Program-made: the position numbers and the translations under genes | Notes under the pieces: model-generated | What the model saw: only the letters and a program-made list of their open reading frames with translations | What the model was told of the DNA's origin: nothing | Databases searched by the model: none | NCBI RefSeq assembly: GCF_016903815.1 | Contig: NZ_CP069973.1 | Length of the DNA stretch: 64,000 nucleotides | DNA from: Escherichia coli | Lineage (GTDB): Bacteria > Pseudomonadota > Gammaproteobacteria > Enterobacterales > Enterobacteriaceae | Strand: one strand, 5' to 3' | In this document: positions 3,403 through 17,709 of the stretch, in pieces | Numbering within the stretch: position 1 is the stretch's first letter | Layout of the letters: the number at the start of each line of letters is the position of its first letter

Positions 3403-4860
3403 TTACTTCGCCGGAATTTCTTTCAGCAGCTCAGTCAGCAGTGTCCAGTAATGACCTACGCTTTCGATGTGAACTTGCTCATCCGGAGAGTGTGGACCGG
3501 TGATTGTTGGCCCGATAGAAACCATGTCCATTTCCGGATACGGTTTTTTGAACAGACCACATTCCAGGCCCGCGTGGATAATCTGGATGTTCGGCGTCTT
3601 GTTGAACAGACGCTGATAAGTTTCACGTACCAGATGCATCACCGGAGAATTAGCGTCCGGCTGCCAGCCAGGATATGCGCCTTTCGCTTCGGTTTTCGCG
3701 CCAGCCAGTTTACCCAGCGAATCCAGCATGCTCACCACGTAGTCTTTACCGCTGTCGATCAGAGAACGGATCAGGCAGTGAATTTCTACGTTATTGTCAG
3801 TCATGGTCACCACACCGACGTTCAGGGAGGTTTCCACCACACCTTTTGCCACATCGGAATTGCGGATCACACCGTTCGGGGTGGCGTTCAGCAGACGAAT
3901 AAAGGTATCGCGAGATTTCGCAATCAGGGCAGCTTTATCGTTCGCAACAGAGTCCAGCAGCAATGCCAGATTTTTCTCTTTCTCTGCCAGCTCGTTTTTC
4001 AGGATCTCCTGATAGGTATTCACCAGAGATTTCAGGGCGTCGACTTTATCAGCTGCGACAGCAATGGTCGCAAAGGCTTCACGCGGGATGGCGTTACGCA
4101 GTGTGCCACCGTTGAAATCGATAAGGCGCAGGTCCAGCTCTTCTGCATGACCCGCCAGGAAGCGCACCAGCAGTTTGTTGGCATTACCCAGGCCAACGTG
4201 GATTTCACCGCCGGAGTGACCGCCTTTCAGGCCTTTTAAGGTTAACTTGAAGGTTTCAAAACCAGCTGGAACCGCTTCACGATCTAAATGCAGGTTGGAG
4301 GTGAAGTCGATACCCCCCGCGCAACCCATGTAGATTTCACCTTCCTCTTCGGAGTCGGTGTTAATCAGAATATCAGCCTGCAACCAGTTGCTCTGTAAGC
4401 CAAAAGCACCATCCATACCGGCTTCTTCGGTCATGGTCAGCAGCACTTCCAGCGGGCCGTGAACCACGTTTTCGTCAGCCAGAACAGCCAGCGCAGACGC
4501 CATACCAATGCCGTTATCCGCACCCAGCGTGGTGCCGCGCGCTTTAACCCATTCGCCATCAATATAAGGCTGGATAGGATCTTTAGTGAAGTCATGCACG
4601 GTGTCGTTATTTTTCTGCGGCACCATATCGAGGTGGGCCTGCAAGACGACTGGTTTACGATTTTCCATACCTGCGGTAGCAGGTTTACGAATCAGGATAT
4701 TACCTACCTGATCGCGTTCGACATGGAAACCTTTCTCTTTTGCCCAACCAACAATGTATTCAGCGAGTTGCTCTTCATGATAGGACGGGTGAGGAATAGA
4801 ACAGATTTTGGCAAAAATATCCCACAGCGGCTGTGGAGATAATTGAGACAGTTCAGACAC
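3403..4860 (-). CDS. pepD: Cytosol non-specific dipeptidase (peptidase D)
   Basis: 485-aa ORF; M20-family peptidase sequence, recognised as PepD. Confidence 0.95.
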   Translation of the reverse strand: MSELSQLSPQPLWDIFAKICSIPHPSYHEEQLAEYIVGWAKEKGFHVERDQVGNILIRKPATAGMENRKPVVLQAHLDMVPQKNNDTVHDFTKDPIQPYIDGEWVKARGTTLGADNGIGMASALAVLADENVVHGPLEVLLTMTEEAGMDGAFGLQSNWLQADILINTDSEEEGEIYMGCAGGIDFTSNLHLDREAVPAGFETFKLTLKGLKGGHSGGEIHVGLGNANKLLVRFLAGHAEELDLRLIDFNGGTLRNAIPREAFATIAVAADKVDALKSLVNTYQEILKNELAEKEKNLALLLDSVANDKAALIAKSRDTFIRLLNATPNGVIRNSDVAKGVVETSLNVGVVTMTDNNVEIHCLIRSLIDSGKDYVVSMLDSLGKLAGAKTEAKGAYPGWQPDANSPVMHLVRETYQRLFNKTPNIQIIHAGLECGLFKKPYPEMDMVSIGPTITGPHSPDEQVHIESVGHYWTLLTELLKEIPAK

Positions 4861-11238: not shown

Positions 11239-11314
11239 GCCGATATAGCTCAGTTGGTAGAGCAGCGCATTCGTAATGCGAAGGTCGGAGGTTCGACTCC
11301 TCTTATCGGCACCA
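11239..11314 (+). tRNA. thrW: tRNA-Thr (CGU anticodon)
   Basis: 76-nt sequence GCCGATATAGCTCAGTTGGTAGAGCAGC…GGTTCGACTCCTCTTATCGGCACCA with cloverleaf features and encoded CCA; position after proA matches thrW. Confidence 0.9.
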
Positions 11315-12148: not shown

Positions 12149-12494
12149 AGGGCAACCTCCGATAAGTGGGTGTTCAAGCCACCACCGGAGAGGCTAATCT
12201 CGCGGGTGGTGGAACCGGGCAGGGTTAGCCTTACCAGCCTTATCGGACACTGGCGCGTCTTGCGACGCCCCCGCCCGGCCCACCATTGAGATGTAACCGT
12301 GCGAACAACACAAAAAAAGACGCTGGCGCGTCATGTGTCGCCGATAAGATTTCTTCAGGAGGCTAATCCCGACGCCTGATTTTGCAGGCGCGGGAGAAAG
12401 ATACTGCGATTGGTCATGAGTGGCAAGGGCTACATCATGTTTACCAACATCTCACGCAAAAATACCCTGATTATTAATAGCGAAAATCAGTTTC

Positions 12495-15400
12495 TTATTT
12501 TGGCGGTAGCTTTTTGCGGTTCTTTGCCAACTGGAATCCTTCAGGTAACGGTTTGAATTTATCGCCGCCTTTAGGCCAGCGTTTTGCCCTGCTCTGAAAT
12601 GCCCTTAACGAGTCGATATCCAGCGTTGCAGCGACCACAAAGTCATTATCACCGCCCTTCACACGAGCAATATCACGCATAAAGGGTTCTTTTGCCGGGG
12701 AACGTACGCGACTATCGCCGTATTTTCGGTTATTCACTAAAATAGTATAGGCATGAATATCCAGCGCTGCTGATTCAATCAACGATGCAAACGTATCTAG
12801 ATCTTTATTCCAGCTCAATACCATTAATGCATCGAGTGCGCCCTGAAAACGGATCCTCGCTTTACTATTCTGGAGTTCAGAGCAAATCATAACGCCAAAA
12901 TTGACGCCGTGATGAATATATACCGGCTTACGTTGTTTAACATTAAGTGTCGAATCCCAAGACTTACCATAAATTGAAAATAATGCCTCATCTTCACCTA
13001 CGGCGGGTTCCAGCTTGGGTTGCCATATTTTGACACTCGCTGGATAGCCGAGTCTGTTATCTGAAAGGACAAGTACGGCCTCACTCTTCAGTTGATTATC
13101 GTCTAAGTGGCGGTATTCTGTTCCCGCAATTAGACTGATACCCGCCGAACTCAAACGATCAGCAATACTGTTAACCCAGCGTAACGGGATTGAAAGCTCA
13201 GGGAATAAAACATAATCAGGTTTAGGAGATAGTTTCAATGTTGCATTAACCAGTTCAGAAATCCGCTGGTACCTTGAACGGGACAAGTTAGATTTATTGC
13301 AGGCCATTTTAGCCCAGTCGTCCTCCTCTGTTTTAATGCTGGTTAGCGCAACGACAACTTTATGTTTCCTGTCTGTGCCAATATGAATGAATTTCTTAGG
13401 CCGAGCTTTTTTTGTCGCTTCATCTGAGTCCTGCTCCGATGCTAGCAACGTCGGTTTGATCCATACTCCGCGTAATGCTTGAGTATATTTTGCCCAAATG
13501 GTGGACGGTCTCTCATCTGGTTTTTTGTCGGATGTGGAGGGTAATCCAACACATTCGGGGGCCAGTTCTGATATTTCAGCGGGTGTTAAAGGACGTGTAG
13601 GGAAAATGTAAGGTAGGTAACTTTCGTTCTTACGATTTCCTTTAGCCACTTTTTCCAGTCGGGTATTCTTGGTTGATTTCAAAAATAGCTTAATAACGTC
13701 AATATCAATAAGCGATGAGTCGCTCATTAATTTCAGTATTTTAACTTCTTTTTTACTATCACGCTGATTAACAAGTTTTTCTGCCGACTGACTCTTTACG
13801 ATCTGTTTATAAGGTTCCTTTGCTAAATCAGCTCGAGCTACCAATGGCGCTTTTAAATAAAAATCTGCTGAATCAAAGCGAAGATCCAGTAAATCCTTTA
13901 GATTCGTCAGACTTTGTGAAATATGATTAAAAAATGTATCCGCAAGGCACTCTTCTTTCTTTGAACGTTTATCAAGAAATAATCTGTCAGGACTGTAATA
14001 TCGTGTCGCTGCATCAACAAATAGCCAGCTTAATGTGCCTTTTATACAGCGCCAAAGATCATTTACTGCTCGAGTTTTGCAACCATTTATATTCACTTCC
14101 TTACCTGAAGTAATCACCGATGCCAACAGGTTGATGGATTCGTAAGCTTTAAGTACAATTTTTTCCGCGTGCTGCCATTCATTCATACTGATAGCAAAGC
14201 CAAGCAGCCTTGGCAGATAACTAAAATGTGCAAATAGATTATCAGCCCTAAGAATATGGTTGTAGGCAAACTGATAAAACTCTTCCCGCTGTTCTTTCCA
14301 TTCACTTGGAGGCAGATCTCGTGCCAGTGTTTCAACGTAGCGTAATTGCAGTGACCAGCCCAAACGACGAATGGTTAATCCATCCGCACGGCGCAGAGTA
14401 TCGGCATTTTCACCTACACTACCGGCAGCGGAAAGGACTTTAGCTGCGGTGGAGTGTTCCAGTTGATCCGGTGAAGGCATCAAGCGGTGTTCACTAGAAA
14501 GCTCGTAGATCTCCTTTTCGATACTGTCGAGCAGGTCTATTCCAGCCCTCCCTTGAAGCACGAAAAGTTTTTGCTTATCGGATTGTAACTGGATGGTGGT
14601 CTTACCCTGGAAATGCTCGCCCTGCTGTATTTGCCATATTTGTTTTTGCTCGTTTTTCAAATAAACGCAATCATTGCCAAGCCTATCTTGCAGCAATAAC
14701 ATAAATTCGTGATTATTAGTAATTGTCCCTGTATCGCGTATTACAAGGAACATATCATCGACATAACGACCGTAGTGAATTGGTGATAGTTTTTCAATGA
14801 CTAATTTATCCCAATGGTGTAGCAATATATTTGAAATGATCCGACTGGCTGTTAATCCAATGACCAGACCACCATTAATAACAGGTGTTTTGTACGCTAT
14901 TTTCTTTCCAAATGCCGCTGCGCCGTCAGACCAGTGCTTTAAGAATACTGCTAACTGTGCAGTAAACGCTTTTTCATCCTCAGTCAGTTTTATGTTTAGT
15001 GTGTTATAGAGATCATCAGAGGTTATAGCCAGTGGATCAATAAAATGATAGTAACTTTTTAAATCCAGTGAGGCGGCGATAATGTCACGATCTTTTTCCA
15101 ACTCGTCACGTATAGCTTTTAAGCCATCACCACGCCATTTTTGGTAGGGCTGGAAGTAGGGGCTAAAAGAACCCACGGCACTGATATGGAATGGATTATC
15201 CTGCTCATTGCTAAATAATTCATCATTACGAATACGCTTTAGCCGCGCGCCATAGCAACAGTTATCTAAGCTGGCATCAAATTTATGCCCGACCATGTTA
15301 ATCCATAGTGCAGAGATAATGTGACTATCAACCGGGAAGTCACCAATAATACGAAACTCTGGTATCAGATCAAAATTATTAAATAAATGGTCGGCTGCTC

Positions 15401-15704
15401 GTTTAGGATTAGAAAAGTGGACGTGTCCATTTTGGGATTCATGTTTTTTCTTTGTGGTTAATTTTTTCGGTAACAAACGAAATTTGCCAATCAACTTCTT
15501 ATTGCTACTGAATCCATCTTCGCTCTGCAAAAGATCTAAGAGTTTTTGCAGGTTTTCAAGTAATTCCTGCTCATACTCGGCAAATTTGATAGCAACAGGA
15601 AATGTATTCTCAAAGAAGCTATCGGCTTTTGCTTTCCGGTAAGCGACCAGAAGGTCTTCAATCGTCAGATCATCCCAGCCAGTGAAAATTGCCTGATATG
15701 TCAT
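12495..15704 (-). CDS. Reverse transcriptase fused to a C-terminal nitrilase (carbon-nitrogen hydrolase) domain; candidate defence-associated RT (UG/DRT-like)
   Basis: 1069-aa ORF. RT motifs: ASLDLKSYYHFID (motif A), GLVIGLTASRIISNIL (motif B-like), YGRYVDDMFLV (YVDD at 14754-14765). C-terminal nitrilase-like triad candidates: FPELSIP (Glu codon 13197-13199), a Lys near VKIWQPK, GVMICSE (Cys codon 12881-12883). Confidence 0.8.
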   Translation of the reverse strand: MTYQAIFTGWDDLTIEDLLVAYRKAKADSFFENTFPVAIKFAEYEQELLENLQKLLDLLQSEDGFSSNKKLIGKFRLLPKKLTTKKKHESQNGHVHFSNPKRAADHLFNNFDLIPEFRIIGDFPVDSHIISALWINMVGHKFDASLDNCCYGARLKRIRNDELFSNEQDNPFHISAVGSFSPYFQPYQKWRGDGLKAIRDELEKDRDIIAASLDLKSYYHFIDPLAITSDDLYNTLNIKLTEDEKAFTAQLAVFLKHWSDGAAAFGKKIAYKTPVINGGLVIGLTASRIISNILLHHWDKLVIEKLSPIHYGRYVDDMFLVIRDTGTITNNHEFMLLLQDRLGNDCVYLKNEQKQIWQIQQGEHFQGKTTIQLQSDKQKLFVLQGRAGIDLLDSIEKEIYELSSEHRLMPSPDQLEHSTAAKVLSAAGSVGENADTLRRADGLTIRRLGWSLQLRYVETLARDLPPSEWKEQREEFYQFAYNHILRADNLFAHFSYLPRLLGFAISMNEWQHAEKIVLKAYESINLLASVITSGKEVNINGCKTRAVNDLWRCIKGTLSWLFVDAATRYYSPDRLFLDKRSKKEECLADTFFNHISQSLTNLKDLLDLRFDSADFYLKAPLVARADLAKEPYKQIVKSQSAEKLVNQRDSKKEVKILKLMSDSSLIDIDVIKLFLKSTKNTRLEKVAKGNRKNESYLPYIFPTRPLTPAEISELAPECVGLPSTSDKKPDERPSTIWAKYTQALRGVWIKPTLLASEQDSDEATKKARPKKFIHIGTDRKHKVVVALTSIKTEEDDWAKMACNKSNLSRSRYQRISELVNATLKLSPKPDYVLFPELSIPLRWVNSIADRLSSAGISLIAGTEYRHLDDNQLKSEAVLVLSDNRLGYPASVKIWQPKLEPAVGEDEALFSIYGKSWDSTLNVKQRKPVYIHHGVNFGVMICSELQNSKARIRFQGALDALMVLSWNKDLDTFASLIESAALDIHAYTILVNNRKYGDSRVRSPAKEPFMRDIARVKGGDNDFVVAATLDIDSLRAFQSRAKRWPKGGDKFKPLPEGFQLAKNRKKLPPK

Positions 15705-15998
15705 GCGTTATCGTCCTTAGATTACAGTCTGTACAGAATTAGCCAGCCGTTTCATGCCCGAAGGGGGGCTCTTGACACCAGTAATCCATCAGTGAGGCTG
15801 GCAATAATTTTGATTTGTATCCATGTTACACGCTCCCCGCAACCAGTCCGAGCATATATTTGTCACATTTTTCCCGAAAGTGATTAAGTTTGAATTTTTT
15901 GTTTAATGTCGATTTTTAGTCGACAAAATGAGGAATAAGTAAACTATTTCTTGCTGTGGCGTATCCCTGAATCTACACTGGTTTAAATATTTGTACTA

Positions 15999-16802
15999 AT
16001 GTCTATTCAGAGGCGACAGTTGCCAAACTATCTAAACTGGCTGATGCAGCACACGCTACCCGGCCAGGTGCTGCTCCAGTCATGGCTTACCCGCAACGGC
16101 ATAGATCGTAAGCTCTCTTATCTCTATGTGAAGAATGGCTGGCTCAGGCGGATCGCTCACGGCGTATACTGCCGGACGGGTCGTGAACCGGATTGGGTGG
16201 ATGCGGTTTACTGCCTGCAATCGCAGTGGGAAAAGCCTGTTCGGGTGGCGGGGCTAACCAGCCTTGCGCTTCAGGGTCATGCGCACTATACCGAACAGGG
16301 TAAGCCGCAGGTCTGGCTCGCGCTTCCGGCTTACGTCAAACTGCCGGGATGGTTTTCTGCCTTTGAACAATCCGCAACATTTGTCACGCTGTATACGTCA
16401 GGCCTTACCGCTGATGTAACGCCATTTACTACGGAACTGAAAATTGGTGACCGGCAGTTAGCGGGCAGTGTCCCGGAACTGGTCGCGTATGAGATCGCTT
16501 GTGGCGTTCCTTCGTTGATCTCGTTCGAACATGCCGATGCTCTGTTTCAGGGGATGAATCTTCTCAGCCCGCGTAAATTGCAGGCGTTACTCTGCGCCAG
16601 TCATTCGGTTAAAACCAACCGGGTGATGCTTTACCTTGCCCGGCGTAATGGACACCCTTATTTTCAGTTTATTGATCAAAGCGGTATAGAAACAGGTACG
16701 GGAAAGCGGCAAATCATACCCGGCGGCTGGCTGGAGCCGGATTATCAAATTACTGTTCCACGCGCATTTAAACCGGAAGGAGTCGAAGATGGATCTGCGT
16801 GA
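15999..16802 (+). CDS. AbiEi-like antitoxin/transcriptional regulator (type IV TA / abortive infection)
   Basis: 267-aa ORF; N-terminal segment (…LYVKNGWLRRIAHGVYCR…) matches the AbiEi wHTH signature; overlaps the next gene by 14 bp. Confidence 0.65.
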   Translation: MSIQRRQLPNYLNWLMQHTLPGQVLLQSWLTRNGIDRKLSYLYVKNGWLRRIAHGVYCRTGREPDWVDAVYCLQSQWEKPVRVAGLTSLALQGHAHYTEQGKPQVWLALPAYVKLPGWFSAFEQSATFVTLYTSGLTADVTPFTTELKIGDRQLAGSVPELVAYEIACGVPSLISFEHADALFQGMNLLSPRKLQALLCASHSVKTNRVMLYLARRNGHPYFQFIDQSGIETGTGKRQIIPGGWLEPDYQITVPRAFKPEGVEDGSA

Positions 16803-17709
16803 TAGCTATGCCCGGCAGGTCAAACTGTTGATGGCCGCTCTGCCGTATGTGGCGAAGGAGTCCTGTTTCGCGTTGAAAGGCGGCACCGCAATCAATTTGT
16901 TTGTGCAGGATTTTCCCCGTCTGTCGGTGGATATTGATCTGGCGTATAAGAGCTTTGCGGATCGCGATACTGATCTGGCGGCTATCAACGACGCTTTGAA
17001 GAGGATTACTGCATCGCTGAACGGCAGACCGGGGATCACCGCGATTCGGCAGGAAAATAAAGCGGATGAAAAGCGCATCATTGTGAATACCGCTGATGCA
17101 AAGATTAAGATCGAGGTTAGCCCGGTCTGGCGCGGGCTGTTGTTGCCTCCGGCAGAAATGCCTGTGTGCGAACGTGTGGAAATGGAGTATGGCTTCACCA
17201 CCATGAGTGTCGTCTCGCTGGCGGATCTTTATGGCGGTAAAATCTGCGCAGCGCTTGATCGTCAGCACCCGCGCGATCTGTTTGATGTGCTGAATATGCT
17301 GGAGAAACCGGGACTGATGCGGGAGATCTTTGACGGTTTTCTTTGTTATCTGGCAGGCCATCCCCGCCCCATTGCCGAGTTGCTGGCCCCAAACTGGGAT
17401 ACAGAGCGGATCACGACGCTGTATGCTCAGGAATTTTCGGGGATGACTCAGCAGGAAACGTCGCTGGAATCGCTGCTGTCAGTAACGACTTTGCTGCCGC
17501 AGGCGTTGAAGTCACATCTTACGGATCTGGATCGCGAGTTCTTGCTCAGTTTTAAGCAAAACAGCCCTGACTGGTCGCGGTATCGCTATCCTGAAATTCA
17601 GCATCTTCCGGCTATTCGCTGGAAGCAACGTAATCTGGCGGTGCTGAAAGATAAAAATCCGGCGAAGTATGTGGCGGCGGTGAATAAGCTAGAGAGGGTG
17701 CTGGCGTAA
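16789..17709 (+). CDS. AbiEii-like nucleotidyltransferase toxin (DUF1814-type)
   Basis: 306-aa ORF with nucleotidyltransferase motif FALKGGTAINLF…RLSVDIDLAY; translationally coupled to the upstream AbiEi-like gene. Confidence 0.7.
   Translation: MDLRDSYARQVKLLMAALPYVAKESCFALKGGTAINLFVQDFPRLSVDIDLAYKSFADRDTDLAAINDALKRITASLNGRPGITAIRQENKADEKRIIVNTADAKIKIEVSPVWRGLLLPPAEMPVCERVEMEYGFTTMSVVSLADLYGGKICAALDRQHPRDLFDVLNMLEKPGLMREIFDGFLCYLAGHPRPIAELLAPNWDTERITTLYAQEFSGMTQQETSLESLLSVTTLLPQALKSHLTDLDREFLLSFKQNSPDWSRYRYPEIQHLPAIRWKQRNLAVLKDKNPAKYVAAVNKLERVLA

Follow-up and report, generated by a model that had tools for sequence, protein, structure and literature searches.

Autorepression through inverted repeats has been described for AbiEi antitoxins and for Rv2827c (PMC3985639; PMC7319586). 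In Streptococcus agalactiae, AbiEi binds cooperatively to two inverted repeats at the promoter and represses it (PMC3985639), and in the case of Rv2827c four repeats are distributed across 131 bp (PMC7319586). A Serratia pair, the only AbiEi_3 case with experiments that we found, is a functional toxin-antitoxin system, the antitoxin transcript of which went up upon toxin induction, and AbiEi_3 was assigned to a different clan (PMC7725324).

Among the RTs of defence systems, UG5 and DRT1 reportedly work without a template and lack an ncRNA (bioRxiv 10.64898/2025.12.16.694600; PMC13275509). For a Sinorhizobium UG5-large RT no flanking transcript was reported, and its defence withstood a 179-bp upstream deletion (bioRxiv 10.64898/2025.12.16.694600). 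A transmembrane partner accompanies a minority of the UG5-large members, and the E. coli E101 system depends on it (PMC9226505). An upstream ncRNA is carried by class 2 DRTs and by retrons.

The window, which here means the whole stretch of 64,000 nucleotides that was analysed, is an Escherichia coli chromosomal island located beside proA and tRNA-Thr, with a truncated integrase and P4-type immunity RNAs aboard (Table 1). The 1,069-aa protein matched the PADLOC profile RT_UG5-nitrilase (E=0) over residues 1–1068 and RTasNitrilase over residues 783–1058, and no Pfam match was obtained for it at the default threshold. An RT is thus fused to a C-terminal C-N hydrolase (nitrilase) as in UG5-large, and by its profile matches the protein is a UG5-nitrilase of class 3 UG/Abi. 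We found no gene of a transmembrane protein downstream of the RT (12405–12494), where isrK and C4 follow within about 90 nt. The c4-a1b1 target element was also seen on the minus strand of this cluster (12202–12404) with 43.8 bits, slightly under the gathering score of 46.7; C4, isrK and c4-a1b1 within about 90 nt of the RT stop codon make up a P4-like immunity region. The same RNA pair is located downstream of the RT in Serratia (locus L005, 5808–5997).

On the other side of the gap, abiEi and abiEii are bicistronic with a 14-nt overlap of their ORFs, and abiEii encodes a nucleotidyltransferase toxin of the AbiEii (DUF1814) type, as in AbiE operons. The abiEi product matched only AbiEi_3_N and AbiEi_3 in Pfam (E=3e-29 and 1e-33) and the PADLOC AbiEi profile (E=2e-77); it is not of the COG5340/AbiEi_4 type.

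Table 1. Features of the RT-nitrilase and abiE region, in coordinates of the window.
Feature	Position	Strand	Basis or remark
tRNA-Thr	11239–11311		Rfam scan of 11–19 kb
C4 RNA	12202–12290	minus	Rfam, 71 bits
isrK RNA	12313–12391	minus	Rfam, 69 bits
UG5-large RT-nitrilase gene, 1069 aa	12495–15704	minus	PADLOC RT_UG5-nitrilase
RT translation-initiation spacer	15705–15718	minus	SD AAGGA 15718–15714
kwaB-like gene 3'-end relic, ~20 codons	15717–~15777	minus	translation and DNA alignment
Inverted repeat GCCAGCC / GGCTGGC	15742–15748 and 15796–15802		perfect 7-mers; judged coincidental
abiE-linked block, ~89 bp	15796–15884	unassigned	alignment with other abiE loci
Box 1, GTTTGAAT	15888–15895	plus	19 nt upstream of O1; direct repeat
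O1, 19-bp palindrome TGTCGATTTTTAGTCGACA	15907–15925		distal candidate operator, about -80 to -62 from predicted start
Candidate abiE promoter	15951–15979	plus	-35 TTGCTG 15951–56, 17-nt spacer, -10 TACACT 15974–79
Box 2, GTTTAAAT	15981–15988	plus	19 nt upstream of O2, at predicted transcription start
O2, TGTCTATTCAGAGGCGACA	16000–16018		proximal candidate operator in 5' leader; encloses abiEi SD AGAGG 16009–13
abiEi, 260 aa from (probable) TTG start	16020–16802	plus	AbiEi_3_N and AbiEi_3
abiEii toxin gene	16789–17709	plus	AbiEii Pfam E=3e-35, PADLOC E=4e-116

A sequence-only reading of this DNA had described an AT-rich, 294-bp divergent control region at 15705–15998. A non-coding gap between the RT start and abiEi does exist, but its right edge most likely lies at 16019. 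The RT start at 15704 on the minus strand is secure, 30 homologues beginning with M-x-Y-x-A-x-F-x-G-W and having an AAGGA-type RBS ahead. The TTG at 16020 and an AGAGG RBS located 6 nt ahead of it were invariant in all 13 orthologous upstream regions, and PGAP annotation also gives the 260-aa form of AbiEi. The position of the ATG at 15999 reads TTG in six genera, and an in-frame TAG after the equivalent codon in Enterobacter led us to reject this ATG as the start. Judged by this alignment, abiEi probably starts at TTG 16020 instead of ATG 15999, and with that start the gap is 315 bp (15705–16019). The description as AT-rich fits the roughly 115 bp of 15885–15998 (GC 0.30) but not 15705–15795, where GC is 0.50 and so above that of the RT gene (0.42); the block 15796–15884 has 0.43.

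The gap is a chimera, about two thirds of which are abiE promoter-operator DNA and the remaining third the tail of a lost gene. Among complete E. coli genomes, the full junction of RT and abiE was found in 259 with at least 96% identity, and in another 555 E. coli records the match begins at window position 15796 and runs rightward with about 84% identity. The left neighbours of abiE in the latter class are hsdRMS, or HTH genes together with a dpt cluster, and by alignment the homology with these hsdR- and dpt-context loci begins at GGCTGGCA (15796–15803). The RT-side sequence 15200–15795 was found in 260 E. coli genomes, so within E. coli it is always together with abiE. Orthologues of abiE with 73–92% protein identity again have other left neighbours in Salmonella, Pectobacterium, Enterobacter, Lonsdalea, Trabulsiella, Symbiopectobacterium and Buttiauxella, and 15796–16019 accompanies abiE beside at least four different left neighbours. 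Because the left neighbours change and this DNA stays with abiE, the sequence from 15796 rightward is abiE's, and the part specific to the RT cassette is only 91 bp. Within the abiE side, the operon's promoter-operator module would span about 15885–16019 and reach leftward to 15796 in some genera. E. coli, Serratia, Enterobacter and Lonsdalea have the block 15796–15884, which is missing from five other genera. This block carries an invariant CGTGTAACAT on its minus strand.

In the 30 RT homologue loci from other species, AbiE adjoins the RT only in Serratia (L005) and in the Enterobacteriaceae MAG UBA5654 (L006). At 3579–3756 of L006, abiEi is down to about 59 codons and frameshifted, and the RT frame (4001 onward) ends after 604 aa; L006 is either a decaying copy of the RT-abiE arrangement or else a MAG assembly error. 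The same RT-abiE-LysR-hydrolase segment also occurs in E. coli MS 69-1, where it is annotated on a non-mobilizable 'plasmid' of 64 kb (L056, NZ_CP146678.1, 'plasmid unnamed3'), which is perhaps a mis-assigned chromosomal fragment, since the flanking genes are chromosomal in other strains. A scan of viral contigs for AbiEi relatives gave no match, and in a plasmid tblastn search all matches besides one E. coli record were below 40% identity and too remote for footprinting. The 315-bp gap would have been built by cassette exchange in the defence island at tRNA-Thr, and would not be an evolved bidirectional control region.

By DNA alignment and translation, the left 91 bp are largely the decayed tail of a kwaB-like gene, which now appears to supply only the RBS context of the RT. 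On the minus strand, ..PPFGHE is followed by a 2-nt deletion and KRLANSVQTVI-stop, and the intact proteins end with ..TTPFGQEKRLANSVQALD-stop. Such an intact ORF of about 277 aa (PADLOC KwaB E=4e-9) lies 12–22 nt upstream of the RT in L027, L029, L037 and L038, and a KwaA-like ORF (E about 1e-14) lies ahead of it in L027, L029 and L037. In blastn, the match of the relic DNA to L037 covered 53 nt at 79%, with an E of 3.5e-7 against the window. In tblastn of the KwaB-like proteins against the window we obtained an 11-aa tail match with E=3.8, which alone is not significant, so the relic is identified by the DNA match and its position, the peptide match being too short alone. The SD AAGGA overlaps the relic stop codon, 12 nt separate this stop from the RT ATG (15704), and the TAAGGAC-N-ATG layout is common to the window, L037 and other homologues. 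What is left is a frameshifted relic of about 20 codons and not the intact DUF4868/KwaB ORF of Kiwa.

In L027 (2550–7200), L029, L037 and L038, the KwaA-like gene (checked in L027, L029 and L037), the KwaB-like gene and the UG5 RT-nitrilase gene are arranged on the same strand, with the RBS of the RT overlapping the kwaB-like stop codon in these loci. A bona fide KwaB (E=1e-81) was found 55 nt upstream of the RT in L039. Together, the KwaA-like, KwaB-like and RT-nitrilase genes possibly form a composite Kiwa-like/RT system; a literature search in full texts for KwaB together with nitrilase brought up a single survey paper.

The conservation of the abiE side was followed in 13 orthologous upstream regions with an ungapped core, and in a further alignment with 11 sequences. 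The sequence-only reading had placed the promoters of both operons in the gap, and on the abiE side a conserved candidate was found: a sigma-70-type promoter, TTGCTG-17-TACACT, is predicted to drive abiE. In the -35 the TTG does not vary, nor do A2, A4 and T6 in the -10; the 17-nt spacer is ungapped, and the Serratia -10 reads TATAAT. The predicted transcription start is near 15986, which gives a leader of about 33 nt. This candidate was the top PWM match of the plus strand (8.4, vs 7.3 +/- 2.0 in random windows); as the score is within the random-window range, the support comes from conservation. A consensus scan for promoters and terminators gave none in the gap and missed the abiE candidate too.

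Two candidate operators bracket this promoter. The distal one, O1, is the small palindrome that had been proposed as a possible operator site, and the proposal holds well: its arms are near-invariant, its position is fixed across genera, and it is a good operator candidate. As a sequence it is at chance level, since 6-nt arms (TGTCGA-N7-TCGACA) within 10 nt are expected 0.66 times (P=0.43, 1000 dinucleotide shuffles). The inverted repeats at the promoter are conserved among the orthologues, as in AbiE: GTC-N11-GAC is located exactly at -113 from the TTG in 11 of the 13 regions and exactly at -20 in all 13, and the 330 nt ahead of the TTG contain no further copy in these regions. O1 is missing in Salmonella and Buttiauxella. 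The proximal site, O2, is a second matching site unnoticed in the earlier reading, which had counted it as coding sequence.

The major-allele frequency is 0.91–0.96 in the O1 arms vs 0.75 in the spacer, and 0.91–0.98 in the arms of O1 and O2 together, the spacers being variable. Out of nine pairs, 6–9 are palindromic in O1, compared with 2.3–3.1 +/- 1.4 in the background, and 9/9 are so in Pectobacterium and Trabulsiella; in Lonsdalea, a compensatory change from A:T to C:G was found. At O2, TGTC and CGAC are invariant (13/13), and the site is kept in a homologue of 49% identity (L054) and degenerate in another of about 50% identity (L050). It is absent from two homologues of about 40% identity, in which GTTTA-type repeats or another small palindrome stand before the RBS instead. 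Part of the O2 conservation is owed to the RBS inside it. O1 and O2 are the sole TGTC-N11-GACA matches in the window, with 0.6 expected, a count that is illustrative only because the pattern was derived from O1 and O2 themselves.

From centre to centre, the distance between O1 and O2 is exactly 93 bp, about nine helical turns, and no indel was found in it across seven genera. Eight of nine lineages keep Box 1 in the form GGTTTrnAT, and the GTTTA of Box 2 is invariant in 11/11 sequences and kept in L050 and L054. Since a GTTTrAAT box lies 19 nt ahead of each palindrome and TAAACT follows after it, the whole unit repeats with a 93-bp period. The unit (15888–15945 vs 15981–16038) reaches into the first abiEi codons. 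This suggests that the 93-bp repeat arose when the 5' end of abiEi was duplicated long ago, the copy being retained as a second site.

Several other functions of this DNA were considered and rejected. The ORF MSIFSRQNEE-stop at the O1 site and a 27-aa ORF in 15823–15906 were dismissed as leader peptides, neither frame nor start being conserved in the alignments. O1 was also dismissed as a CRP site, as the spacing of the CRP motif differs from that of O1 and O2.

By analogy with the described AbiE systems, we infer that AbiEi is the bound protein: it would bind O1 and O2 and repress the abiEi-abiEii promoter lying between them. To repress, AbiEi would bind cooperatively or would bend or loop the promoter DNA, and a cooperative or loop-type repression is suggested because the 93-bp spacing is indel-free and close to nine helical turns. 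The earlier argument that AbiEi-type antitoxins autorepress has its precedent, but the precedent family is COG5340/AbiEi_4 and the protein here is AbiEi_3. Serratia AbiE-A2 was examined as an orthologue and rejected; its primer sequences show an MGESMSSK start, which makes it a distant family member. Taken as a whole, we consider it fairly probable that the gap is chimeric, with an abiE promoter-operator autorepressed through O1 and O2, a kwaB relic, and no RNA of the RT.

The palindromes may not be what AbiEi recognizes. The GTTTA/TAAAC boxes (15888, 15940 and 15981) could be the true element, with the palindromes serving another factor or role, because O2 is degenerate or absent in remoter homologues, those without it having repeated GTTTA-type boxes or another small palindrome instead. 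The boxes persist in homologues of about 50% identity, are repeated at least five times in both orientations upstream of a palindrome-less homologue of 43% identity, and follow the same 93-bp period, Box 2 being invariant. However, no non-coding positions are more conserved than the palindrome arms, the spacing between Box 1 and O1 is shifted by 8 nt in Enterobacter, and promoter function may explain why the boxes, A/T-rich and located at the transcription start, are conserved; we regard this explanation as unlikely. The repeat structure could also mean that O1 and its flanks are a non-functional relic of the old 93-bp duplication, and that regulation, if any, goes via O2 only. The 38-nt direct repeat is 71% identical, the similarity of the units reaches TAAACT, which is coding in unit 2, and two genera lack O1. 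Against this, the O1 arms are kept while the spacer drifts, O1 is more palindromic than O2 (9/9 in two genera) and shows a compensatory change, and the 93-bp distance is indel-free in seven genera, none of which would be expected of a neutral relic; we give this possibility little credence. That a regulator of the host or of a mobile element, such as a P4-like factor, occupies O1 and O2 in place of AbiEi is very improbable: P4-type immunity RNAs do adjoin in the island, yet both sites follow abiE into non-P4 contexts, between transporter or metabolic genes (L047, L049), and the mismatch in spacing applies to CRP.

The remaining alternative is that of the sequence-only reading, namely that both operons share a bidirectional control region, with gccagcc...ggctggc acting as an operator or as an RNA stem and with an ncRNA encoded in the part next to the RT. 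The larger repeat does exist, minimum-free-energy folds pair its arms, and the class 2 DRTs and retrons offer a parallel for an upstream ncRNA. But 7-nt arms within 60 nt are expected 1.09 times per shuffle (P=0.56, 1000 dinucleotide shuffles). The left arm consists of the R-L-A codons of the kwaB-like relic and the right arm of abiE-side DNA across the cassette junction, and both arms are absent from L005 (Serratia) and L006 (UBA5654), which keep the RT-abiE arrangement; with the arms on different sides of the junction and missing in these two loci, we judge the repeat to be coincidental and find no support for it as an operator. The ncRNA fares no better. Rfam over 11–19 kb at E<=1 gave nothing in the gap, the matches being tRNA-Thr, C4 and isrK elsewhere, and the folding z-scores (+0.95 for the minus strand, -0.88 for the plus strand) are no more stable than those of shuffled sequence, so that the RT strand has no structured conserved upstream region. 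The RT fits no RNA-templated class, RT_UG5-nitrilase having E=0 vs 1e-5 to 1e-8 for Drt2 and Drt3a, and belongs to a class reported as template-free. In 15 of the 30 homologous loci a co-directional ORF of 115–872 aa ends at most 25 nt from the RT start or overlaps it, which leaves no room for an upstream RNA; the ORFs abutting the RT are KwaB-like, Fic/DOC, hsdS or AAA-ATPase genes. The upstream regions of the RT in the homologue loci have sequence in common within close groups only. From this crowding by ORFs, the unshared upstream regions and the class 3 RT, a family-wide upstream RNA is excluded and a lineage-specific RNA is without support, and we find the shared control region as a whole scarcely credible. 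A 9-mer, ACGGCTGGC, is found inverted at 15794–15802 (plus), at the cassette junction, and at 15741–15749 (minus), in the relic; this could be microhomology used in the rearrangement, or a coincidence.

For the RT, a promoter could not be identified in the gap, where only 91 bp are RT-specific. In a PWM search of the minus strand the best scores (8.1, 7.0 and 5.9) were within the random-window range, and the hits were unconserved save a weak TAACAT. This TAACAT (15828–15823, minus) is the only conserved -10-like hexamer; it reads TAGCAT in L006 and has no good -35. The RT has a dN/dS of 0.045 vs the Serratia orthologue, dS being saturated. Under such strong purifying selection the RT must be expressed, presumably from a promoter within the abiE-linked DNA. 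One might speculate that AbiEi at O1/O2 also gates leftward transcription into an exchangeable defence slot and that RT expression relies on 15796–15925, an idea to which we attach a low probability. If it is true, the antitoxin would be the resident regulator of a swappable defence slot, occupied by the RT-nitrilase here and by hsdRMS or dpt-linked genes elsewhere.

Homologues of the RT-nitrilase often directly follow genes for type I R-M specificity subunits or for ATPases. In L014, L016 and L023, hsdS ends 14–15 nt ahead of the RT, and in L008, L009 and L021 hsdS is followed by a 588-aa AAA/SMC-like ATPase gene overlapping the RT start by 1–4 nt. In E. coli, hsdRMS fills the same slot beside abiE.

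The locus is an ordinary toxin-antitoxin promoter-operator joined to a gene relic. A tempting ncRNA lead for a class 3 RT is thereby removed, and the intergenic DNA of a defence island is seen to be potentially mosaic, with a junction and a gene relic accounting for features that look regulatory. We found no mapped operator of the AbiEi_3 branch in the literature searched, and the present sites offer a candidate operator and promoter map for this branch that is testable at base-pair resolution. The locus also raises the question of how an orphaned, conserved RT-nitrilase is transcribed after loss of the genes preceding it.

Compared with the described UG5-large and class 3 RTs (Mestre et al. 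2022, PMC9226505; bioRxiv 10.64898/2025.12.16.694600; DRT1, PMC13275509), the RT studied here is alike in its full-length match, its P4-like defence island and the lack of an ncRNA, and differs in having no downstream transmembrane partner and in being cut off from the genes located upstream elsewhere. The ncRNAs of DRT2, DRT9 and DRT10 and the msr-msd of retrons resemble the gap in position only, upstream of the RT and on the same strand; they belong to another RT class, and at their place we have a protein-gene relic with no conserved structure, conservation or Rfam match. With Kiwa, the locus shares a relic that matches the C-terminal tail of KwaB-like proteins, the order KwaA-like, KwaB-like, RT being kept in L027, L029 and L037; here about 20 codons with a frameshift remain, and the intact relatives are themselves distant KwaB homologues (E=4e-9).

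As for the abiE side, Rv2827c-Rv2826c of M. tuberculosis (Beck et al. 2020, PMC7319586) likewise has repeats over about 130 bp upstream, some of them far from the core promoter, but these are four 23-bp repeats in two pairs with negative cooperativity, and the protein family is another one. The abiE operon of S. agalactiae (Dy et al. 2014, PMC3985639; Hampton et al. 2018) is also bicistronic with the antitoxin gene first and an AbiEii nucleotidyltransferase, and its inverted repeats likewise lie beside or across a sigma-70-type promoter, the spacer of which is 17 nt long and the leader short. Its antitoxin is of COG5340/AbiEi_4, a Pfam family and clan other than those of the AbiEi_3 protein here. 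Whereas S. agalactiae has two 23-bp mutually inverted repeats, 3 bp apart and overlapping the -35 and +1, the present locus has two self-palindromic 19-bp candidate sites, 93 bp apart and bracketing the promoter.
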